Program-made: the position numbers and the translations under genes
Notes under the pieces: model-generated
Told to the model about the DNA's origin: nothing
The model's database searches: none
What the model saw: the letters and a program-made list of their open reading frames with translations, nothing else
From: a virus
Taxonomy: Duplodnaviria > Heunggongvirae > Uroviricota > Caudoviricetes
Virus record (IMG/VR): IMGVR_UViG_2740892273_000003
Length of the DNA stretch: 44,348 bases
Strand: one strand, 5' to 3'
In this document: in pieces, positions 840-44,198 of the stretch
How positions within the stretch are numbered: position 1 is the stretch's first letter
How the letters are laid out: every line of letters begins with the position of its first letter

Positions 840-1421
840 TTACCCTATAGGTGCTACTGGCCATTCAATATCCGGTGCAGTTGATGTATCAACACGGTTC
901 AGCAACACCCGATACTTTTTCCAAGCTTCCAGCAACAAGGTTTCTTTCTCCGTTGCGATCTCCAGATCCACAGCATCCTGAAGCGGCGCTATATGCTCAC
1001 TGGCTACCTGCATCAGGCTGTTTTTTGTTTCTTCCGCCTCCCGGATCCGGAACAGTTTTTCTGCTTCCGTATCCTTCACCCAGGCTGTGCCGTTCCACTT
1101 CTGAAACTCCCCTTCCGGCGACAACCAAGTAACATTTTCCGGTAACGGACCGAGTTCAGAAATAAATAACGCGTCGCCGGAAGCCACGTCATAAACCGTT
1201 TTACCCCGATGATCTTCAACGAGATGCCACGATGACTCATCACTGTTGAAAACAGCCACGAAACCAGCCGGAATATCTGGCGGTGCAATATCGGTACTGT
1301 TTGCAGGCAGACCTGTATGAGGCGGAATATATGCATCACCTTCACCAATAAATTCATTAGTTCCGGCCAGCAGGTTATAAATTTTTATGGTCCGTGCTTG
1401 TTCACTCATTCTGAATGCCAT
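840..1421 (-). CDS. tfa: Tail fiber assembly protein (lambda Tfa-like, 193 aa)
   Basis: ORF length and position immediately downstream of the side tail fiber gene; start overlaps stf stop. Confidence 0.8.
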
Positions 1422-28204: not shown

Positions 28205-28516
28205 ATGTTTAACGTGATAACCCACCCTGCAGCACTGGATGAACTGCTTGAACTACCAGATGATTTGCGAGGTCGCATGACCAGATTAATTGAGCGACTG
28301 GAGAAGGAAGGCAACAAACTGAAGATGCCCCATAGCCGTGTAATAGGTGGAGGGCTTTTTGAACTACGAGTAGGGGATAAAAACATCGCAAGAACGCTGT
28401 ACGCCTACGCGACTGGTAACGAAATTTATCTATTGCATGCATTTGTAAAAAAGACACAGAAAACACCGGTGAAGGCTATTGAAATCGCCAGAACTCGCCT
28501 GAAGGAGATGAACTGA
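28205..28516 (+). CDS. Type II toxin, RelE/HigB superfamily (N15 gp49-like, 103 aa)
   Basis: Small basic protein resembling gp49-like/HigB toxins; GGAGG RBS 7 nt upstream; encoded upstream of an HTH protein with ATGA start/stop overlap; opposite strand to flanking phage genes. Confidence 0.65.
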   Translation: MFNVITHPAALDELLELPDDLRGRMTRLIERLEKEGNKLKMPHSRVIGGGLFELRVGDKNIARTLYAYATGNEIYLLHAFVKKTQKTPVKAIEIARTRLKEMN

Positions 28517-28803
28517 TGAAAGCGAAAGGCATCCCGTTTAACGAAGTAAAAGAAAAACTTCTCAACACTCCAGAAGCCATCAAAGGATATGAAGAGGCCG
28601 ATAAAGAGCTGGAGATGGTCGAAATGTTATACGAAATGAGGGAAAGAGCAGGTTTAACGAAGTCAGCTCTGGCTGAACGAATGGGATTGCGCCCGTCAGC
28701 TATCAGCCGCCTGGAAAGCAATCCTTTAGGGGCAAGCATGAAAACTTTATCAAAATATGCCCAAGCATGCGGTGCAACGATTAATATTAATGCCGTCTAT
28801 TGA
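28516..28803 (+). CDS. HTH (XRE-family) antitoxin, HigA-like (95 aa)
   Basis: Helix-turn-helix segment LTKSALAERMGLRPSAISRLE; translationally coupled to the toxin gene. Confidence 0.65.
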   Translation: MKAKGIPFNEVKEKLLNTPEAIKGYEEADKELEMVEMLYEMRERAGLTKSALAERMGLRPSAISRLESNPLGASMKTLSKYAQACGATININAVY

Positions 28804-28846: not shown

Positions 28847-29065
28847 TCAATGATGCAAACACTCAACAGCAATAACTTGTTGGCAATTCTGAGCAATCTC
28901 CCGCGACATACTAACAAGTCGTGAAATCTCGCCAAGATGCAAGCTGGCTTCTGGAGAAGCCAGAGCAACGCTAACCAGATCCAAAACGGCGTCGATGTCT
29001 TTTAGGTTTGATCCGAGTTCTTCAAGAGTTGATACAGGTGCTTCAGTCATTGAATCTAATACCAT
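28847..29065 (-). CDS. Small protein (67-72 aa) downstream of a LexA box; candidate SOS-inducible antirepressor
   Basis: ORF with alternative ATGs at ~29065 and ~29050; a LexA-box-like sequence lies ~25 bp upstream. Confidence 0.45.
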   Translation of the reverse strand: MVLDSMTEAPVSTLEELGSNLKDIDAVLDLVSVALASPEASLHLGEISRLVSMSREIAQNCQQVIAVECLHH

Positions 29066-29087: not shown

Positions 29088-29107
29088 TACTGTATAAAAT
29101 TACAGGG
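29088..29107 (-). promoter_or_regulatory. LexA box (SOS operator) overlapping a candidate promoter
   Basis: TACTGTATAAAATTACAGGG fits CTGT-N8-ACAG with an AT-rich centre; on the minus strand it overlaps TTGAGT-17-TACAGT promoter-like hexamers. Confidence 0.6.
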
Positions 29108-29298: not shown

Positions 29299-29312
29299 CG
29301 TGACCAGTCACA
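29299..29312. repeat. Palindrome CCGTGACCAGTCAC (GTGAC-N2-GTCAC), copy 1 of 2
   Basis: Shares the 14-bp core GTGACTGGTCACGG (reverse complement) with the palindrome at 40633-40652. Confidence 0.5.
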
Positions 29313-33918: not shown

Positions 33919-34515
33919 ATGAAAACACGAGGCGAACGACTGAAAGCACGCCGTTTAGAGATGAAGCTGACGTTGCGAGAAGTTGCTGAGGCTGTCGATA
34001 TCTCTATTGCAGGCGTCCAAAACTTAGAACGTGGCGACGTAATGCCGTCACTGGAGATAGGTATTGCCCTGGCTAAATGCTTACGCAAGCCAGTGCATTG
34101 GGTGCTGTATGGGACAGAATATGACCCTGATCGCATTCCTGTTATTGGCACAACTGAAAGTGGACCTGATGAAGAGTGGAAGCCAGGACAGGTTCCAAAT
34201 ACTGAGCGATTCCTGCCATTCATCAGCCAGCGCAATACTGTTTATGCGTTAACTATCAGCAATCTGGCGCAGGGAAACTATCAGCCTGGCGATTTTCTCC
34301 TGGTCGATTCTGCGCTGGAACTGGTCCCCGGCGAGGATGTTCTGGTTCGTGATACTGCAGGAAATATCACCATCCAGCGCCTGGCCCGTTTTGATGATGA
34401 AAATTACTATCTGGACGGAACAAATTCACAACGCGCTATCTTCAGGAAAAGCGATCTTGAATTTGTTCACCAAATAGTCGGAACGATCAAATCATTCATG
34501 GTTGAGGGTAGATGA
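33919..34515 (+). CDS. cB: Prophage repressor, cB/cI-type (HTH_XRE N-terminal domain plus LexA/S24-like C-terminal domain that appears to lack the catalytic Lys)
   Basis: N-terminal HTH LREVAEAVDISIAGVQNLERG; the C-terminal domain aligns by eye to the cI/LexA peptidase fold (PGDFLLVD) but has QRLAR where the catalytic Lys is expected. Confidence 0.75.
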   Translation: MKTRGERLKARRLEMKLTLREVAEAVDISIAGVQNLERGDVMPSLEIGIALAKCLRKPVHWVLYGTEYDPDRIPVIGTTESGPDEEWKPGQVPNTERFLPFISQRNTVYALTISNLAQGNYQPGDFLLVDSALELVPGEDVLVRDTAGNITIQRLARFDDENYYLDGTNSQRAIFRKSDLEFVHQIVGTIKSFMVEGR

Positions 34516-34760: not shown

Positions 34761-37700
34761 ATGACATTAAACGATTTCTATGCGGATCGCTTTGGCAGCG
34801 ATCCGTTCTCGCTAATTGAAGCAGCACGGGATGAACTAACCGAGCTGGCACAGATGGCTGGTATCAACTGGTCTGCCTGTTCCGACAACATCCAACTCAA
34901 CCCTCGCGGGGGTGTTGAGCGTTACTCTTCATACAATAAAACATCCCCAGAAGCTCTCGAAAAGAGCCTCAAAGGACGCGTAGAAATTTACTCCCGGCTG
35001 GAACACAGCAAAGGGATTGATTACCCGTTCATTAACTTCGTCCATAAAGGCAGCGATGCTGGCTCATGGAGCGGTTTCTCCTTCCTGTTTTCTGAATATC
35101 GCCGTGAGCAACAACGGAATAATGCGACCGTGGTCGCACAACCGGAAGAAGAACGGGCAAGAATAGAACGTCAGGCCGAAGCACGTCGTCGCCGTGAAGA
35201 ACAAAAACGAATTAATGACCTGAAAAACAACCAAATGGACCATGAACGTTTGCTGGGATGGCTGGCATTCCACAGTGCTTGGGAACATGCTCCTGCAGAA
35301 GACGGCTCATGGCCATATGCGATTAAAAAAGGTATTCGTGACGTTTTTAATTCGTGTGATGTGCGTCGCGTGACCAGTCACGACAGCGCAAAATGGAGCA
35401 GGGGGCCAACCACGTATATGGCTATCCCTCTGGCTCACCTGGACGGTCGTTACGATGGTCGTATTGTTGGTTGGCAGCGAATCGACAAACAAGGTGGAAA
35501 ATACCAGACCAGCGCCGTAACCAGCGGCGATTTCGTCGGTGCCTGCTTTGTTATCGGTGAGCTGAAAGGGGCGCAAAACATCGCTGTTACAGAAGGTTTT
35601 GCTACTGGTGCATCCATCTGGCTTGCCACGAAAAAAGATAAACGCTTTGACGCTGTGGTTGTCGCTGTATCCGCTAACAACATGGTTCATGTTGTGGAAC
35701 AACTGGTAAACATGTACCCGGCGGCAAAAATCACCTGCGCACTGGATAATGACCGGAAATCAGCTACAGAAGGAAAAGGGAATACCGGCCTGCGGACTGG
35801 CTATGAAATCTTATCGAAATTCAACGATGTCCGCTGCGTCTATCCAACTTTTGAAGACGATCCGCAAATGGAGTGCAGTGACTTCAACGACCTGCACAAA
35901 CTACGTGGACTTCGTGAAACAGCACGTCAACTGTTTGCAACTGCAAACCGCCTGAAAACTGGCACTGATTTGCTATCTCTGACGCTCAACCGCCTGAAGA
36001 CAATTAAGCGGGATAACCGTCGTACTTTTGCCAAAGAGCTGCTGAGAGCAGTGGATATTGGCATGCTAACCTGTCCGGTTCCTAACAGTCCGTCAGACTT
36101 ATTTAACATGTTCTGCATCGTCCTGCGTGAAATTGGGCTGGAAAATATCTATCGCGCTACGGTAAAAGACCACATTGCCCGTCGCCTGAATAAAAAGTGC
36201 CGTATTGCCCAGGCTCCGCGCTCATTCAGCGAACGAATAACTGATCCCAATAAACGTCCTCAACATATCACCTATAAGCGTTTTGAAACTTCGGTAATGA
36301 CCGATGACGTCCTGAAGTATGTGCAATCACTACAGGGGATAGTCATCGTTCGTGCTGGTATGGGTTCCGGCAAATCTACTGGATTGTTACGACCTTTAAT
36401 GCATAGCTCAGAACGTGGTATCTCTGTTGCTCACCGTGTTTCCCTTATTGGTGGCCTGTGGGAAATGATGACAGAAGGAAAAGGTGTAAAAGCCGATATC
36501 CTGCACTATCAGGACCCTGGCTATCAGGAAATGGCTCCATACGCCAGTAAACTGACCATCTGCATAAACTCGATTGTTAAAAACTGCTGGCAACCATTGA
36601 TGCGCCAGCACGACTATTTTGGCTTTGACGAGGCCACGCAAGGGCTACGTGCCGTTCTTTCCGGTCGGGCTATGGAAAACCCGGTGGCTGTATTCAATAC
36701 GTTAATTGACGCGCTGGCCAGAACGGAACAACACCCAATAATGGTGGATGCTGATGCGAACGATCTGCTGGTTGACCTGGCTGAACTGGCTATGAAACGC
36801 CGTGAAGAACTAGGTTTACCGGCATGGCTGCAGATCCACGTAATTGAATTACCTGTTGATGTTCGCAACCGCGAAACAGGTGAGCCAATCCGGGTTTTTT
36901 ATACAGAAAAAGATCGCATTATGACCGAGGTGGTGAAAGCTGTATCGAATGGCGAAAAAATCATGTTGGCCACCGACAGCTCCACCTTTGCAGAAGATGT
37001 GACCGCCACCCTGAGAATGCATTTTCCTGGTAAGAAATTTCTGTGTGTAAACCAGAAAAACAAACCAGAGCCAGAAGTTGAAGCATTTACCAATCAACCG
37101 AAAAAGATGGTCAAAAAATACGACGGCCTGATTTATAGCCCGTCTATTTCATCCGGTGTGTCGATTGAGCAAAAACATTTTGACCGTCATTTCGGCATGT
37201 TCTGTGGTGAAGTTGTACCCAGCGACGCAGTGCAAATGCTACGCCGCGACCGTACAGCAAAAGAATTTATTATCGGCTTTGATAAAGCTCGCGCAAAACG
37301 TGAAACTGACCCGCAAAAAATAGAACGAGCATTCGCCCAGGCATTGCTTGCTACCGCAGGCATGAACGGTGAACTGACGGATGTCGTTTTCGATGGCGAC
37401 CGTATATCAATGGGGGTGGCCAATACCGACTTTACCAGGATGAAAATTAAAGCAGCCGCAATTGAAGCGTCTGCGCGTAACGACTACGCCAGCAACATGA
37501 TCTGCATCATGCACAGCGACGGTTATAAGGTATCGCCGCTGGCCACCGATTATGCTGCGAATGATATCGGTAAAGATCTGCGTAAAGAAGCGCGGGATAT
37601 TGTGTGGGAACAGACACTGGATCTGCATCTCAATACAGAAACTCCACAAGAATCAGAGCGTGAAGAACTGCTAAAAAAACGCGCGCTGACGCTTGAAGAA

Positions 37701-39758: not shown

Positions 39759-40571
39759 ATGCGTAACAAAAAAACAACAGCTTTATTACTCTCTATCTTG
39801 TTATTATCTGGATGCACTTATCAATATGATAATAAGGCATCAACGGACGTTGAGTATAAATTCGAAAAAGAAAAAAGAGTACCTATCAACTCTGTTGGTG
39901 ATTTTAGCAGCAAAATACTCACAGGTAAGGAATTTAATAGAATTATTGCATCAAAGATAGATGATGGTTCATGGCGTGGATATGTCGTTCACTCATTAAC
40001 ATACGCGCCATACAACAACGTTTTAACATCTCAAGGTTTGTCTATCCCTAGAAGTATCACATACTCAGGAACATATCTTAACCGTGATTTTGTTGAGAAT
40101 AGCGGTAGTGATAGCGTGATAACATCTCGAGATATGTCTGGATGGTATGGTTTTCATGTCGATTCCTCTGAAATAACAAAGCATGGAAGCTATGTTGGTG
40201 CTAATGCTTTTGGAATATCTGCTGATGTAGAAGTGTTAAATACTTTAGGTGCCGAAATTATCTTTGGTAGTACACAAATAAATGAAGGGAACCCTGAAAC
40301 AATATGGGCAGATATTGATATAAAAGGACAAATACCAAAAGATGTTAATGTAAAAGACCTTAGAATTGAATATTTAGCAAAGATAAATGGGTTAAGCAGT
40401 AATCATATTGATATAACATCACCTACTATTTTTAACCCGTCAGATATGAGCCATAAAACTCAGGTTTTTATGGGTGAGTTATTAGCCGCGCGCCTAATAA
40501 ATATTAAAACGGGAGAAATTTATCCAGTACAGCTAGAGTGGGTGTTCCGTTCGCGTGAGGCTTTCTTATAA
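39759..40571 (+). CDS. Lipoprotein (270 aa), AT-rich moron-like gene
   Basis: Signal peptide with lipobox LLLSGC; markedly AT-rich coding sequence; followed by a perfect hairpin GAACAAT-aac-ATTGTTC. Confidence 0.55.
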   Translation: MRNKKTTALLLSILLLSGCTYQYDNKASTDVEYKFEKEKRVPINSVGDFSSKILTGKEFNRIIASKIDDGSWRGYVVHSLTYAPYNNVLTSQGLSIPRSITYSGTYLNRDFVENSGSDSVITSRDMSGWYGFHVDSSEITKHGSYVGANAFGISADVEVLNTLGAEIIFGSTQINEGNPETIWADIDIKGQIPKDVNVKDLRIEYLAKINGLSSNHIDITSPTIFNPSDMSHKTQVFMGELLAARLINIKTGEIYPVQLEWVFRSREAFL

Positions 40572-40632
40572 CGGAACAATAACATTGTTCATGTTCTGAT
40601 CGTTTGTTCAAGCAAACTATAAAAACACCTGT

Positions 40633-40652
40633 CCCCGTGACTGGTCACGGGG
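40633..40652. repeat. 20-bp palindrome CCCCGTGAC-TG-GTCACGGGG upstream of the antirepressor locus (GTGAC-N2-GTCAC copy 2)
   Basis: Perfect 9-bp arms with a 2-bp centre, too tight for an RNA hairpin, so more likely a protein-binding site; shares a 14-bp core with the 29299-29312 site. Confidence 0.5.
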
Positions 40653-40699
40653 TAAAATGTCTTTGCAAATTATTGACGTGTGCGTCGTTTTGGAGGTAA

Positions 40700-40786
40700 A
40701 GTCACCTCGCTGCGGTAAATCCCGCAGTCGGGACTTCGCAATCCTGGCAAAACGAAGCGCACAACACGCGCCAGCGTGTTTTTTTG
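40700..40786 (+). ncRNA. Candidate small regulatory RNA (P1 c4 / N15 CA-like) preceding icd-ant
   Basis: Promoter-like TTGACG (~40673) with a weak -10; hairpin CTGCGG-taaatc-CCGCAG; intrinsic terminator ACACGC-gcca-GCGTGT then TTTTTTT at ~40764-40786; lies directly upstream of an icd-like gene. Confidence 0.4.
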
Positions 40787-40951
40787 TGTGTATAGACCTG
40801 CGCATATCCGAATTATGGTGGCTCAGGTGGGGCTGACTTCGGTCGGGCCGGTTTCTTCGTTTACCGGTATTGCGAACCCCGCCTGGGCTACCACCAATAA
40901 AGAGATTCGCAACTCTGGTGGTAGCACGACCAATAAAACGGAGTGCATACC

Positions 40952-41116
40952 ATGTTCAAATTCAAATTTGCGGCAGTCGTTCGCACAGACAAAAAGTCCC
41001 ACATTCATCATCTTTCCACTATCGCGTCATCTGAACGGGAAGCTCGTCGCCAGTTCGCCAGCCGGTTTGTCCTGGTATTGTCTGCCCGTATTCCGGTGCG
41101 CGAGGTGGCTGCATGA
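40952..41116 (+). CDS. icd: Icd-like cell division inhibitor (54 aa)
   Basis: MFKFKFAAVVRTDKK...EREARRQFASRFVLVLSARIPVREV fits the pattern recalled for P1-type Icd-like proteins; GGAG RBS. Confidence 0.55.
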   Translation: MFKFKFAAVVRTDKKSHIHHLSTIASSEREARRQFASRFVLVLSARIPVREVAA

Positions 41117-41346
41117 ATCAGGTAAAAATGAACACTGTTGGCCTGCTGGAATCGTTGGATGAACGTCTGGCTCAGGTCTATGCGCTCGTATCATCAGCCC
41201 ATCGGACAGTCTCCAGTTGTGAGGCGTCGATTTACCTCTCAGAGGCTGGAAAACTTCTGCAGATTGCGTGTGAGTTAACGCATGAAGCACAGGGATATTC
41301 TGCGTCTCTCTCGTCGCACTTGCTGCGCGATAAGGAGGCTGAATGA
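41113..41346 (+). CDS. Hypothetical protein (77 aa) in the icd-ant operon
   Basis: ATGA overlaps with both the upstream and downstream genes. Confidence 0.5.
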   Translation: MNQVKMNTVGLLESLDERLAQVYALVSSAHRTVSSCEASIYLSEAGKLLQIACELTHEAQGYSASLSSHLLRDKEAE

Positions 41347-42125
41347 GCGCGTTAGCAGTCTTTTCCTTTCAGGAAGAGCATCAGGTTCGTGTAGTGATGA
41401 TTAACGGTGAGCCGTGGTTTGTGGCTAAGGATGTATGTGATGCTTTAAGACTCGTTAATTCCCGGAAGGCGCTAATGTCTCTGGATGAGGATGAAAAGGG
41501 TGTAACTTTAAGTTACACCCCTGGCGGAGAGCAAAAGCTAAATATTATTTCAGAGTCAGGTCTATACACCCTGATCCTCCGCTGCCGTGACGCGGTGAAG
41601 CAAGGCACAACAGCTTGGCGGTTTCGCAAATGGGTAACGAACGAAGTCTTGCCCTCTATTCGCAAAAATGGAGAGTACGTTTACATCGAGCCTGAGCCAA
41701 TGCGAGCAGCGGAGCCGTTGAACTGGAGGCAGAAAGAGTATCTGCGAGGGCTGATTAACGATATAGCACAAAGTTTTCAGTACCGAAATGCCTGGATTAG
41801 CGGTGTATGGTTAGCTTTGCGTCGGGCGTGTCGTAATCCATCCCCGAACCCCATAACGGTTGATGATTTGCCAGCAATTACGGCAGAACTGCGCCGGATT
41901 TTGACGGCTGCTGAGTCGGCATTGGGGAACATGCGCACGTATGAACGAGAGTTGTTGCGTGATGTTGTTCGTGGGGGTAGGCGGAGTATGTCGTGTGGTG
42001 ATTTACCCATCACCGATATTAACTCTGATCTGGAAAAGGCGTTACCCGCGCATTTTGAACTGGCAGTTCAAAAACTTGAGCAGTTATCCGCGCAGCTAAA
42101 GCCAGCAGAAATCACCAATAAATAG
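41343..42125 (+). CDS. ant: Antirepressor with Bro-N domain (260 aa)
   Basis: N-terminal FSFQEEHQVRVVMINGEPWFVAKDVCDALRL...SESGLYTLILR...KWVTNEVLPSIRKNG matches the Bro-N domain pattern. Confidence 0.7.
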   Translation: MSALAVFSFQEEHQVRVVMINGEPWFVAKDVCDALRLVNSRKALMSLDEDEKGVTLSYTPGGEQKLNIISESGLYTLILRCRDAVKQGTTAWRFRKWVTNEVLPSIRKNGEYVYIEPEPMRAAEPLNWRQKEYLRGLINDIAQSFQYRNAWISGVWLALRRACRNPSPNPITVDDLPAITAELRRILTAAESALGNMRTYERELLRDVVRGGRRSMSCGDLPITDINSDLEKALPAHFELAVQKLEQLSAQLKPAEITNK

Positions 42126-42147
42126 GGTTGACCAGCCCGAATTTATG

Positions 42148-42164
42148 CCCTTCTTAGAGAAGGG
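42148..42164 (+). terminator. Hairpin CCCTTCT-tag-AGAAGGG just after ant
   Basis: Perfect 7-bp stem; no T-run, so terminator function is uncertain. Confidence 0.3.
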
Positions 42165-42261
42165 AAGCCTCGCAGTCGGGGCGGTGATGTCTGTGGTTGC
42201 AGCCGCGTTTCCTCCGTTACTTCTGCCCTTTGCAGGGGGCAGGCGAGGTAGGTCACACAAC

Positions 42262-42285
42262 AAGGCACCGTTAATTCGGTGCCTT
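42262..42285. terminator. Bidirectional terminator between convergent ant and telN
   Basis: AAGGCACCG-ttaatt-CGGTGCCTT with flanking A/T. Confidence 0.55.
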
Positions 42286-42296
42286 TACTGTATGCT

Positions 42297-44198
42297 TTAA
42301 CCGAAATATGTCAGCCATGCTAACTGCATTGCTGACATGGGGCTGTTTGCACTGCCGGACCACGCATAATTCTGGCCATTATAATGAAACTCAACAACGT
42401 ATGAGCCATCACCAATATTTCTCACCGGCTTAAATACCGGCTTAGATACAGGCGAAGAAGGTGCAGGCGGTTGCTGTTCTTCTACGCTATCTTCCTCTTC
42501 CTCTTCCTCTTCCTCTATCTCAATTTCGTCGTCATCCAGATCGTCATCCTCTGATAATTCATCCGCCAGTTCAGGTATTGCTTCCAGTTCTTCTTCGTCA
42601 GGCATAACGATTTCTGGAGTATCTATTTTCAGTTGCCATTGTCCGTTTTCGCCAACAAATTGCCCCAGAGCATCAGCAGCAAATTCCAGGTATCGACTAA
42701 TCATTGTTGGGCTAAATTTGAACGCTCTTAGAGTGCTGTTCGTGATTTTTATAGAGGGGTCCTGCTCTACCAGCTGCTTAACTGTGTTATGCAGACGAAC
42801 CCCGGCATCTCCTCTGGCGAATCCAGGCATTTCGTCATCAAGCTGCTGCAATGCTTCCAGCCTGGTATTTTCGTTTCCAGTATTTGGCCTCCATGTCTTT
42901 GAGAAGTTGGCCAGCTTGAATTGCTTATAGTGTAATTGAGTGTTTTCATCGTCATGGCCTAAAATTTCCATAAAGAAAACATCTTCATCTACGTTTTTCC
43001 AACGAGGATCTACGCGGAAAAACATTTCATACGCAATACGGGCATAAATAGCACGACTATCTTTATAAACACGGCGGTCATCTTTGAAAAATGATTTAAC
43101 CCACGGGTTAAAAGCCTTTGCTAATATGGCATTAATACGTCCGTTTTCAGAGCGTGTGTCGTTATCTCCATAACCTTTAACGACATCATCAAAATCAGAT
43201 GCTGCTGGGCATGAGCGAAGTACATTTATTAAATAAACAAATGTTTTTGCTTCGCATAATGTATATATTTTTCTGGTTATATCATCAGAAGTTCTTTTTT
43301 TAGCTTGGCCTAAAAAATCAACGGTATACTTACCAGAAACAGTAAATGTACCTTGATACATAATCTCAATCATTCGTCTTCCTGACAATGCAGCAAGTGC
43401 AAATGCCAAAGGAGCCATACCTGAACGAGTGTTTAGATTATTTAATGTAGCAGGGCTATTTATAATATCGTAAATAGCTTGCATATATTTAGGGTAATCA
43501 ATGACCACCACGTTACGTTTCTTATTGTGCAGAACGTCCGCCCATCGTTGCTGGATAGATGCACGTTCGGCAGGGCTTAGTTGAAGATGATAGAGAATCT
43601 CATGGTTAACTTTTAGCTGATTCAACTCCTCAAGTAAGGCAGATCCTTGCTGTAGTAATTTATATAAATAATCGCGCTTATCTTTCCAGTTATCGCTGGT
43701 TAAATCAGAAATGGCGAATTGCCACTCTTTATATTTATTTGATAATTTCAATAACTTATTATGACTTTTGTTATCGCCAATTCTGATATTAGATAAATCT
43801 TCTGATAGAGGGAGAATTAATTTTAATTTTGCCTGTAAAGCTGACATTCTCTGGCGAATATCGGCAGCAGGTAGAGAAAGCCATGACAATAGCTCCTCAT
43901 TATATAAAGGATACTTTTCAGATAGGCGATGTATATTTTTTTCAAAGCTATGATGAAGTTTATCATCAAACCGTTTTCTGGCCCTGCTCATATAGGCATT
44001 GAATGTGTTGGCTGTAATTCTTTTTTCTAATCCTTTCCCCCTAAACTTTCGCTTGTCATTAAATAATGCATTTTTAAATTTTAATGCAACAGCCTTTATT
44101 TTTTTTGTTTTCTCCCCTTGAGGACGGTCAGAGTTATCTATTGACTCAACATCGCTAACAAGTGAGTTTATTAATTCACCGATTTTTACTTTGCTCAT
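42297..44198 (-). CDS. telN: Protelomerase (telomere resolvase), TelN-like (633 aa)
   Basis: N-terminus MSKVKIGELIN..., internal blocks such as RITANTFNAYMSRARKRFDD and WRPN..ENTRL, and a C-terminal acidic tract match the N15 TelN protein as recalled; length is close to the 631-aa N15 protein. Confidence 0.8.
   Translation of the reverse strand: MSKVKIGELINSLVSDVESIDNSDRPQGEKTKKIKAVALKFKNALFNDKRKFRGKGLEKRITANTFNAYMSRARKRFDDKLHHSFEKNIHRLSEKYPLYNEELLSWLSLPAADIRQRMSALQAKLKLILPLSEDLSNIRIGDNKSHNKLLKLSNKYKEWQFAISDLTSDNWKDKRDYLYKLLQQGSALLEELNQLKVNHEILYHLQLSPAERASIQQRWADVLHNKKRNVVVIDYPKYMQAIYDIINSPATLNNLNTRSGMAPLAFALAALSGRRMIEIMYQGTFTVSGKYTVDFLGQAKKRTSDDITRKIYTLCEAKTFVYLINVLRSCPAASDFDDVVKGYGDNDTRSENGRINAILAKAFNPWVKSFFKDDRRVYKDSRAIYARIAYEMFFRVDPRWKNVDEDVFFMEILGHDDENTQLHYKQFKLANFSKTWRPNTGNENTRLEALQQLDDEMPGFARGDAGVRLHNTVKQLVEQDPSIKITNSTLRAFKFSPTMISRYLEFAADALGQFVGENGQWQLKIDTPEIVMPDEEELEAIPELADELSEDDDLDDDEIEIEEEEEEEEDSVEEQQPPAPSSPVSKPVFKPVRNIGDGSYVVEFHYNGQNYAWSGSANSPMSAMQLAWLTYFG

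Follow-up and report, generated by a model that had tools for sequence, protein, structure and literature searches.

Which RNA keeps the small operon beside the protelomerase gene of this phage silent, and which of its proteins, once made, would act against the prophage repressor? Our answer is that the locus is very probably an antirepressor operon of the P1 immI type, silenced by an antisense RNA that is encoded in cis and acts in trans, and we base this on homology, RNA folds, co-varying complementarity, gene overlaps, protein families and a LexA-controlled AntC paralogue found elsewhere in the same DNA, all of them computed here. The window, by which we mean the whole 44,348-nucleotide stretch that was analysed (IMG/VR record IMGVR_UViG_2740892273_000003), is an N15-like telomere phage-plasmid with a protelomerase gene at 42297-44198 on the minus strand, and TelK/TelN domains are present in it. 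Plasmids of E. coli and E. albertii show 100% identity to the operon region, and PLSDB holds 136 related plasmids.

The operon and its borders

Judged from its sequence, the region 40633-42285 is the orthologue of N15 immA, an operon of secondary immunity or anti-immunity, and comprises promoter Pa, a leader, a C4/CA RNA, icd, antA and antB (Table); the N15 locus is reportedly laid out as Pa, CA RNA, icd, antA and antB. The operon lies between cargo on the repA side and a convergent telN, in the same place and gene order as genes 32-31-30 of N15 and Gp29-28-27 of phiKO2, and its position, gene order and ATGA overlaps are those of immA in N15, phiKO2 and YDC107_1. Over their full length, Icd, AntA and AntB are 94%, 63% and 74% identical to N15 gp32 (its C-terminal part), gp31 and gp30. 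The likeness to P1 immI and N15 immA that an earlier note on this DNA had drawn is thus borne out, by the synteny beside telN, by the orthologous proteins and by an order of sites that is the same in P1.

The same note had read three coupled ORFs of 54, 77 and 260 aa here, the first icd-like and the last with a Bro-N domain, and in this it was right. The start codons of antA and antB overlap the stop codons of the genes before them (ATGA at 41113-41116 and 41343-41346), with Shine-Dalgarno sequences GAGGTGG at 41101-41107 and AAGGAGG at 41331-41337, respectively. Icd scores 67 bits against a cutoff of 25 with its NCBIfam model, which P1 Icd also matches, and BLASTP gave no alignment between the window Icd and P1 Icd.

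Table. Features of the immA region, and of the cB and antC loci, in the window
Feature	Position	Strand	Basis and remarks
antC homologue, 72 aa	28847..29065	-	57% identity (E = 9e-27) to the N15 ORF in antC position
LexA box CTGTATAAAATTACAG	29090..29105	no strand	overlaps spacer and -10 of putative antC promoter
cB, prophage repressor	33919..34515	+	HTH and S24-like C-terminal region; 78% identity to N15 CB; Pfam HTH_3
Perfect 20-bp palindrome CCCCGTGACTGGTCACGGGG	40633..40652	no strand	21 bp upstream of Pa -35
Promoter Pa, sigma-70-like	40673..40702	+	promoter scan; -35 TTGACG 40673-40678, 18-nt spacer, -10 TAAAGT 40697-40702
Operon leader, IsrK / c4-a1b1 equivalent	40709..40787	+	Rfam isrK; fold
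a1 site UUCGCAAU	40735..40742	+	loop of leader hairpin 2; complementary to C4 a'
b1 site AAACGAAG	40750..40757	+	single-stranded, between hairpin 2 and terminator; complementary to C4 b'
C4/CA-type antisense RNA gene	40811..40898	+	Rfam C4 (RF01695), 82.3 bits; fold
a2 site AUUCGCAA	40905..40912	+	loop of small hairpin, AGAG 40901-40904 with CUCU 40913-40916
GGUGGUAGC	40917..40925	+	exact complement of GCUACCACC at 40887-40895, in the 3' strand of the C4 closing stem
b2 site AAACGGAG	40936..40943	+	overlaps icd Shine-Dalgarno GGAG 40940-40943, 8 nt before ATG
icd, 54-aa Icd-like cell-division inhibitor	40952..41116	+	NCBIfam NF033153; first (coupling) ORF
antA, 77-aa small antirepressor	41113..41346	+	N15 gp31 63%, phiKO2 Gp28 66% identity
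antB, 260 aa, N-terminal Bro-N	41343..42125	+	Pfam Bro-N 77.8 bits; N15 gp30 74%, phiKO2 Gp27 76% identity
9-bp hairpin AAGGCACCG-ttaatt-CGGTGCCTT	42262..42285	no strand	between convergent antB and telN; read from sequence

Downstream, the operon likely ends at the hairpin at 42262-42285. The phiKO2 record has a putative bidirectional terminator annotated at the matching site, and the terminator scan did not call the window hairpin, whose T-run is poor. Upstream, the core of the palindrome, GTGACTGGTCAC, occurs three times in the window against 0.16 expected and is near-invariant in relatives; the palindrome could be bound by a regulator or could mark where an upstream transcription unit ends. 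Two identities proposed for GTGACTGGTCAC were rejected, one as the N15 SopB centromere, for which PMC7205306 gives GTGCGACCACGGTCGCAC as the IR, and the other as a CB operator, on comparison with that operator. Pa itself has no convincing CB operator; the only match to the consensus TTATAGCNNGCTATAA, 51 bp upstream of the -35 (40607-40622), has three mismatches and is at chance level; the P1 promoter, in contrast, bears the C1 operator Op51. A conserved upstream repeat, CTGATCAG, is degenerate in the window. In alignments of about 38 relatives the -35 of Pa is invariant and its -10 nearly so, and we infer a transcription start at about 40709, which is also where the match to the Rfam isrK model (RF01394) begins.

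A leader, an antisense RNA and their sites

What lies between Pa and icd? The earlier note had placed a promoter-hairpin-terminator unit at about 40670-40786 and taken it for a c4-like small RNA. The promoter, two hairpins and the terminator are all real, but the unit is a leader that carries the sites a1 and b1. In the fold, hairpin 1 spans 40709-40728 and hairpin 2 spans 40729-40746, and an intrinsic terminator, detected by both scan and fold, follows at 40763-40787 (stem 40763-40780, U-run to 40787). Across 35 sequences, both hairpin 1 and the terminator are 100% paired, and four of the pairs in hairpin 1 are compensatory. The leader scores 52.8 bits with isrK against a gathering threshold of 50, a margin of less than 3 bits (E = 1e-8 over the whole window), and 24.8 bits with the c4-a1b1 model (RF03163) against a threshold of 46.7, which the NAR688 orthologue (47.7) and P1 (51.0) both pass. 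If terminated, the leader would yield a short RNA of about 78 nt.

For the antisense repressor one has to look to the next element downstream, which the earlier note missed; the Rfam scan for c4 that it had suggested finds this element. The C4 model matches over its full length, with 82.3 bits against a gathering threshold of 45 (E = 8.5e-15 over the whole window), and the minimum free energy structure (-48.1 kcal/mol, z = -5.56) is the Rfam consensus. A 17-bp closing stem (40816-40832 with 40877-40893) encloses hairpin 1 (40833-40846) and hairpin 2 (40847-40868); the segment b', CUUCGUUU, sits at 40855-40862 in the loop of hairpin 2, and a', AUUGCGAA, forms the single-stranded joining segment at 40869-40876. 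In the 35 sequences each of the three helices keeps 99-100% of its pairing and shows compensatory changes. C4-type RNAs are about 77 nt long when mature and are processed from a leader transcript, by RNase P in the case of P1. In the window, the 3' end of the C4 RNA reads ACCACCA (40890-40896) and the promoter scan gave no match for a promoter of its own, both of which are consistent with release by processing of the leader transcript. The Rfam scan found the pair of isrK and C4 in N15, YDC107_1, NAR688, Kpn74 and PhiR46_1 as well, and in the window it gave no match to isrJ or any other Rfam RNA downstream of antB; Rfam itself groups C4 and related RNAs in clan CL00128.

Could the region instead encode a protein repressor, with no role for RNA? 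Older records would have it so: a 'cA secondary immunity repressor' is annotated as a CDS at the corresponding place in the N15 record U63086, related plasmids carry 'ash family protein' labels, and the 128-aa ORF at 40776-41162 matches Pfam Phage_ASH with 48 bits. We nevertheless find this barely conceivable. The long N15 frame across the RNA, gp32, is not conserved but is broken in the window by TAA at 40934-40936, the window ORF that covers the RNA uses another frame and runs into icd, the base-pair changes are of the compensatory kind typical of structured RNA, and the region matches a covariance model at 82 bits.

It is the target sites, which we name a and b after P1 and compared with the P1 record, that bear most directly on which of the two RNAs could be the repressor. 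On the reading of the earlier note, the unit at 40670-40786 would be a c4-like repressor RNA directed at the icd leader by base-pairing, with the Bro-N protein as the antirepressor; this combined reading we consider very unlikely. The unit is real enough, would yield a short terminated RNA and matches a small-RNA family, isrK. However, a1 and b1 have the same sense as a2 and b2, so the leader cannot pair with the icd leader as had been proposed, and the partner of both is the C4 RNA. In addition, the C4 covariance model matches 40811-40898 instead of the leader, and the P1 annotation places c4 after a1/b1.

We therefore keep to the C4 RNA as the probable repressor, in an arrangement that P1 shares. 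In P1 the order is likewise a1, b1, c4, a2, b2 (over the icd Shine-Dalgarno), icd and then ant1 with an ATGA overlap, the whole of immI being P51 promoters - a1 b1 - c4 - a2 b2 - icd - ant1/ant2, with P7 alike; P1 matches the same Rfam models, and its segments are displayed in the same way: a1 by the loop of the second leader hairpin, b' by that of the second C4 hairpin, and a' by the joining strand.

Do the sites change together? Over 35 distinct sequences, the seven pairs between a' and a2 are 100% paired, five of them with changes on both sides, and the six-pair core of a' with a1 is 97-100% paired, with two-sided changes in four. The latter count was made in the majority register of alignment A2, since indels shift the register in alignment A1, where only 48% are paired; a1 of the window is shifted by one nucleotide from the register that most relatives keep. 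Column-based counting was dropped for b' with b1 and b2, because there too indels shift the register between sequences, and alignment-free duplex energies were used. In eight phages, each of the four site pairs gains 4-7 kcal/mol in duplex stability when the partners are cognate and not non-cognate; the b'-b2 duplex of the window is short, with 8 bp including one G-U and -8.4 kcal/mol. N15 has different recognition segments (CUUCUUGU for b' and GUUGAGAA for a'), so its CA RNA is predicted to pair poorly with the window operon.

About 38 distinct relatives show at least 19 combinations of a' and b', and all six interleaved sites agree in each; the 18 types that we examined each have matching a1, a2, b1 and b2. 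Two types of b' loop each occur with three types of a' strand, so that six of six combinations are seen, and the window shares its loop type with NAR688 and its strand type with Kpn74. Might recognition in the C4 system of telomere phage-plasmids follow a code of two independently assorting parts, rebuilt under heteroimmunity, together with a type-specific decoy leader? We offer this tentatively and think it rather unlikely as a whole. If it were true, heteroimmunity selection at immA would repeatedly rebuild a six-site RNA interaction network, and the IsrK-like leader, as a type-specific decoy, could be an SOS-independent, strain-specific trigger of induction or of cross-talk between co-resident phage-plasmids.

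Proposed silencing, termination and activation

How would the C4 RNA silence the operon? For RNA processing, for the translational block or termination and for the action of AntA on CB, we draw on work in P1, N15 and Gifsy-1. Transcription from Pa would begin at about 40709, and the leader would present a1 in a hairpin loop and b1 as a single strand before reaching its terminator. Transcripts that read through would include the C4/CA RNA, which would be excised from this precursor and, once mature, would leave two segments exposed, b' as part of the second hairpin's loop and a' as the unpaired joining segment. These would then pair in trans with a2 and b2 on new transcripts; icd would go untranslated because b2 covers its Shine-Dalgarno, and antA and antB would fall silent too, since each starts inside the preceding gene and translational coupling would be lost, probably along with premature transcription termination. 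Pairing of C4 RNA with the leader sites a1/b1 would amount to autoregulation and may promote termination; alternatively, the short terminated leader would be a decoy for C4 RNA, like IsrK in Gifsy-1. Whenever C4 RNA became limiting, for example on infection or by titration, Icd would be expected to block cell division and AntA, aided by AntB, to inactivate the CB prophage repressor.

Is the block at the icd ribosome-binding site really the main step, or is it premature termination, with RNA polymerase halted either by the leader terminator or, ahead of antA, at a Rho-dependent site once C4 RNA has paired with a1/b1 and a2/b2 on the nascent RNA? We regard the latter as plausible, while leaning slightly against it. 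A strong intrinsic terminator, annotated in the records of N15 and phiKO2 too, follows directly on a1/b1. In P1 the translational block at icd reportedly leads to Rho-dependent termination before ant, the CI RNA of P4 acts by premature transcription termination, and the same has been proposed for the CA RNA of N15. An analogy with P4 seqA/CI is also made in the Gifsy-1 paper (PMC4825925). Nevertheless, b2 lies over the Shine-Dalgarno in every type examined, which speaks for at least a translational component, and the folds showed no obvious antiterminator that would compete with the leader terminator. P4 (seqA - CI RNA - seqC), which we compared by description, is like what we propose for the window in that the operon's own leader gives rise, by processing, to the small RNA that controls it, and this RNA has complementary sites both upstream and downstream of itself; unlike the window, it has no icd or ant, and transcription termination controls its replication genes.

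A second question is whether control is dominated by activation, with the terminated leader (about 40709-40787) acting in trans, independently of SOS, to turn on icd-antA-antB. Its a1 and b1 would pair with a' and b' on free C4 RNA or on the read-through mRNA, sequestering the repressor segment or refolding the mRNA. The leader scores above the isrK threshold, and the complementarity of a1/b1 to a'/b' has been kept by compensatory change. In Gifsy-1, IsrK supplied in trans raises antirepressor translation more than 100-fold, and spontaneous induction requires the isrK promoter (PMC4825925). Before processing, the read-through transcript might also form an alternative helix between GGUGGUAGC and GCUACCACC, which uses the 3' strand of the C4 stem and is conserved, being 100% paired in the 35 sequences. 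However, this helix is almost invariant, and the two of its nine pairs that changed on both sides owe this to one sequence each (phiKO2, in alignment A1); covariation therefore says little in its favour; moreover, the processed downstream RNA of Gifsy-1 could not be demonstrated as a terminator or repressor (PMC4825925). Dominance of such activation is a possibility that we take seriously but would not quite put our weight on. As an added layer, activation of the IsrK type is compatible with silencing by C4 RNA.

The Salmonella prophage Gifsy-1 (PisrK - IsrK - STnc1160/orf45 - anrP; PMC4825925) resembles the window in having an isrK-type leader with an intrinsic terminator. Transcripts that pass the terminator there yield a stable RNA by processing and carry a small ORF, whose coupling to the antirepressor was shown experimentally (PMC4825925, Hershko-Shalev et al. 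2016). It differs in its downstream genes, orf45 and AnrP as against Icd, AntA and AntB, and in being an integrated lambdoid prophage and not a phage-plasmid, and the model published for it puts more weight on the short leader RNA as an activator than on a C4-like RNA as a repressor (PMC4825925).

Antirepressors and relatives

Which protein, then, is the antirepressor? The earlier note gave this part to the Bro-N protein and left the 77-aa gene anonymous, and Bro-N proteins are indeed often annotated in that way, as their PHROG matches show. Against this second half of its reading stands the annotation derived from N15, in which the 77-aa protein is the antirepressor and the Bro-N protein an auxiliary: the phiKO2 record calls Gp28 'antirepressor AntA' and Gp27 'auxiliary anti-repressor AntB'. 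PhiR46_1, moreover, has an identical leader, icd and antA but an antB cut to only 54 aa. AntA matches phrog_6301 (E = 1.5e-36) and phrog_10889, 'anti-repressor', families that it shares with the AntC homologue, and Bro-N is the sole Pfam match in AntB, whose function, according to a review, has not been elucidated; antA of phage P840 prevents lysogenisation when expressed. On the strength of GenBank annotation and secondary citations, the primary effector is probably the 77-aa AntA and not the Bro-N protein AntB. A search for solved structures related in sequence to AntA or AntB found none.

Are there two independent anti-immunity routes, as the earlier note suggested? The SOS-controlled one is there: a LexA box of the pattern CTGT-N8-ACAG precedes the AntC homologue, as in N15, which has a separate LexA-controlled antC with its own box, CTGTGTTTATATACAG, at the corresponding place before its antC-position ORF. 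Yet at the level of the proteins the two routes are not fully independent, for AntA and the AntC homologue are paralogues, as the PHROG profiles that they have in common show; BLASTP did not detect a similarity between them. Both presumably target CB. The element would thus have two copies of one small antirepressor fold, one controlled by RNA and the other by SOS.

With P1, the kinship lies in the working of the locus and not in all of its proteins. P1 Icd belongs to the same NCBIfam family as the window Icd, but the only match in P1 Ant1 is Pfam ANT (the KilAC/ANT domain), where the window has the 77-aa AntA and a Bro-N protein, and window AntB and P1 Ant1 are unrelated (BLASTP E = 0.18). 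The window locus is immI-like in how it works and outside P1 immI at the protein level.

We are dealing with a known kind of system, which adds no principle beyond P1, P4, N15 and Gifsy-1, and the main value of the analysis is in annotation, of use to work on the widespread linear plasmids of Escherichia and Klebsiella. Both RNA elements are generally unannotated in this phage-plasmid and its 136 PLSDB relatives, AntA is labelled "hypothetical", and some "ash family protein" records are translations of the C4 RNA gene. With the correct RNA and its four target sites in hand, one can say which 8-nt segments set the specificity of immA.

N15 is among the closest known systems, with promoter, leader, terminator and C4-type RNA as in the window and both RNAs above their Rfam thresholds; its upstream cargo is different, that of the window being an AT-rich lipoprotein-like gene.

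The operon and the element that carries it

All four TelK/ResT protelomerase domains are found in the ORF at 42297-44198(-) of the window, and the region at 40574-42125 shares 90% identity with Escherichia phage YDC107_1 (genus Ravinvirus), 79% with N15 across its first 700 bp and 100% with E. coli and E. albertii linear plasmids (NZ_CP014491.1, NZ_CP117561.1, NZ_CP126913.1), which together mark the window, on sequence, as an N15-like telomere phage-plasmid. The locus is present in 136 plasmids (PLSDB).

The anatomy described in the earlier note is real: scan, folding and reading frames recover its promoter, hairpins, terminator and three overlapping ORFs, and the icd-like gene and the Bro-N gene that it claimed both find their family matches. 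Among relatives the -35 element of the operon promoter, Pa, is invariant and the -10 nearly so, the ORFs are joined by ATGA overlaps, and antA and antB each have a Shine-Dalgarno (SD) of their own within the preceding gene.

Features of the immA region and of the SOS-controlled locus (window coordinates)
Feature	Position	Sequence	Evidence or remark
Pa, promoter-like site	40673-40702	TTGACG-18-TAAAGT	promoter scan
isrK	40709-40784		Rfam, 52.8 bits; coincides with the earlier "hairpin-terminator unit"
a1 (leader)	40735-40742	UUCGCAAU	leader hairpin 2 loop
b1 (leader)	40750-40757	AAACGAAG	single-stranded
Intrinsic terminator	stem 40763-40780 + T-run		downstream of Pa, after two hairpins
C4 antisense RNA	40811-40898		Rfam, 82.3 bits; between leader terminator and icd
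b' (C4 RNA)	40855-40862	CUUCGUUU	C4 hairpin 2 loop
a' (C4 RNA)	40869-40876	AUUGCGAA	joining strand, unpaired
a2 (3' of C4)	40905-40912	AUUCGCAA	small-hairpin loop
b2 (3' of C4)	40936-40943	AAACGGAG	over icd SD GGAG; 8 nt 5' of ATG
icd-like ORF, 54 aa from ATG	40952-41116		NCBIfam NF033153, 67 bits
antA ORF, 77 aa	41113-41346
antB ORF, 260 aa	41343-42125		Bro-N domain
antC homologue, 72-aa ORF	28847-29065(-)		57% identical to unannotated N15 ORF between genes 47 and 48
LexA box	29090-29105	CTGTATAAAATTACAG	overlaps predicted antC-homologue promoter
CB repressor	33919-34515		78% identical to N15 CB

Genes 32, 31 and 30 of N15 have the same order and position as the window operon, convergent with telN, and Gp29, Gp28 and Gp27 of phiKO2 correspond likewise in order and position, the GenBank notes there reading Icd, "antirepressor AntA" and "auxiliary anti-repressor AntB". 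The N15 counterparts are 94% (Icd), 63% (AntA) and 74% (AntB) identical, and the suspected resemblance to the N15 immA region holds good: judged by synteny, orthologous proteins and shared RNAs, the locus is a member of that family. According to reviews on telomere phages, immA comprises antA, icd and antB as one operon, the function of AntB not having been elucidated; antA of phage P840, when expressed, abolishes PY54 lysogenisation. The whole locus is of a well-described kind and no surprise to specialists. In Escherichia phage PhiR46_1, leader, C4, icd and antA are identical to the window and antB (L004 3250-3414) is truncated to 54 aa, directly before telN, which suggests that at least one phage isolate can do without AntB.

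The C4 RNA and its recognition sites

The Rfam search for c4 proposed in the earlier note, with only matches above gathering thresholds counted, gave two matches in the region, isrK and C4. The note had placed its small RNA at the leader unit, which is real and matches isrK, but the C4 RNA lies downstream and had been missed. It folds into the family structure, with two hairpins within a 17-bp closing stem (-48.1 kcal/mol, z = -5.56), and the isrK and C4 pair recurs in N15, YDC107_1, NAR688, Kpn74 and PhiR46_1, and indeed in >200 phage records, Stx phages among them; both RNAs are annotated in one of these records. In N15, gp32 and the former annotation of a "cA" protein extend across the C4 RNA gene; in the window the gp32/cA frame is broken by a TAA (40934-40936) and the ORF covering the RNA uses a different frame, a pattern that fits a non-coding RNA. 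When the C4 RNA gene is conceptually translated, the product matches Pfam Phage_ASH (PF10554; 48 bits, aa 6-61; window 40776-41162(+)); in N15 the gene concerned is gene 32 (L001:3748-4038). Because of that match, CDSs that related records annotate as 'ash family protein' or 'secondary immunity repressor', which overlie non-coding RNA, are probably spurious.

Sites carry their P1 names, which were checked against the P1 record. In eight telomere phages cognate duplexes are stabler than non-cognate ones for each of the four pairings (-17.1 versus -10.1, -9.2 versus -4.2, -12.4 versus -7.4 and -11.1 versus -7.1 kcal/mol). Scanning IMG/VR with Icd added 48 further loci, and among 35 distinct leaders (alignment A2) 100% of cells are paired for a'-a2, with both-side changes in 5/7 pairs; for a'-a1, pairing in the six-pair core is 97-100%, with such changes in four of six. 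Compensatory changes also occur in the C4 helices and leader hairpin 1, and a1, a2, b1 and b2 match in all 18 distinct (a', b') types. Stability, compensation and matching types together argue strongly, on comparative grounds, for functional pairings. A possible conserved helix, in which the C4 stem's 3' strand (40887-40895) would pair with GGUGGUAGC (40917-40925), weakly suggests, since it is nearly invariant, alternative conformers of the unprocessed transcript.

Comparison of the 330 nt upstream of icd in the phage loci and the further related loci L012-L058 (~38 distinct leaders) gave at least 19 combinations of b' (loop) and a' (strand). Two loop types are each found with three strand types, all six combinations being seen, and the window joins the NAR688 loop type to the Kpn74 strand type. 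The two recognition modules may assort independently among relatives, an only mildly new observation; with six cognate sites that interleave on the DNA, this would need multiple crossovers or repeated co-evolution.

Proposed repression in the light of P1 and Gifsy-1

The P1 record annotates a1, b1, c4, a2 and b2 over the icd SD, with icd overlapping ant1, in the same site and gene order as the window, so the supposed echo of the c4-icd-ant layout is a true one; the same Rfam models score P1 at 68.8 (C4), 51.0 (c4-a1b1) and 35.1 bits (isrK). The window locus would work like P1 immI, but with other proteins: P1 Ant1 is a KilAC/ANT protein unrelated to AntB, and the two Icd proteins have only a family profile in common.

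Read-through transcripts from Pa would be processed to C4 RNA, which would block the icd ribosome-binding site in trans and silence antA and antB too, via translational coupling or polarity; the leader may be a target for autoregulation and, in its terminated form, a decoy or activator. Such repression may be mainly translational, the control established for P1, or may act by premature termination, as proposed for P4 and N15. The Gifsy-1 isrK locus has its leader and RNA architecture in common with the window, and work on IsrK there found that a short leader RNA raises translation of the coupled antirepressor >100-fold. A CB operator was sought at Pa, with no convincing match.

The SOS-controlled route and flanking sequences

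N15, too, has a LexA box at its ORF between genes 47 and 48, and this interval is the position of antC, whose product is an SOS-controlled antirepressor according to the cited literature. AntA and the AntC homologue both match phrog_6301 (E = 1.5e-36 and 3.6e-36) and phrog_10889 ("anti-repressor"), with no similarity in pairwise BLASTP. Membership of the same two families points to a single small antirepressor fold present in two copies with different wiring, each presumably aimed at the CB repressor, an arrangement already known from N15. Of the two independent anti-immunity routes once supposed, the LexA-box antC route is indeed present, but the shared families make independence a matter of wiring rather than of fold. 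Directly adjoining antC, a pair of small ORFs of 103 and 95 aa that overlap (28205-28803(+)) correspond by position to N15 genes 49 and 48, the second clearly related in sequence to gp48, and look like a candidate toxin-antitoxin pair.

A perfect palindrome, CCCCGTGACTGGTCACGGGG (40633-40652), lies 21 bp 5' of the Pa -35 and matches the CB operator no more than it does the SopB centromere repeat of N15, being neither. Its core, GTGACTGGTCAC, is near-invariant in ~38 relatives and recurs at 29300-29311, the gp46-like/gp47-like junction (the same place in N15), and at 35370-35381 within repA (three copies against 0.16 expected). The conserved block 5' of Pa at 40577-40625, where the junction to variable upstream cargo falls, opens in most relatives with CTGATCAG-GTT-CTGATCAG, a sequence that includes two Dam sites, is capable of forming a hairpin and is degenerate in the window; a weak CB-operator-like TTCAAGCAAACTATAA (40607-40622, three mismatches) is likewise conserved.

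The cargo slot between repA and immA, which holds bacteriocin ('telocin') cassettes in Klebsiella telomere phages (PMC12042878), here contains a 270-aa ORF (39759-40571(+)) with a lipoprotein-type signal (MRNKKTTALLLSILLLSGC), a GC content of 0.30-0.38 against ~0.50 in neighbouring genes, and no match in Pfam, NCBIfam or PHROG. The 170-bp antB-telN spacer (42126-42296) has no Rfam match and, unlike Gifsy-1, no isrJ-like RNA; it has a 9-bp hairpin (42262-42285) and a 51-aa ORF (42145-42300), hypothetical in the YDC107_1 annotation. The left part of the window holds a full-length match to Rfam IS009 at 880-1078(-), scoring 218 bits (gathering threshold 117).
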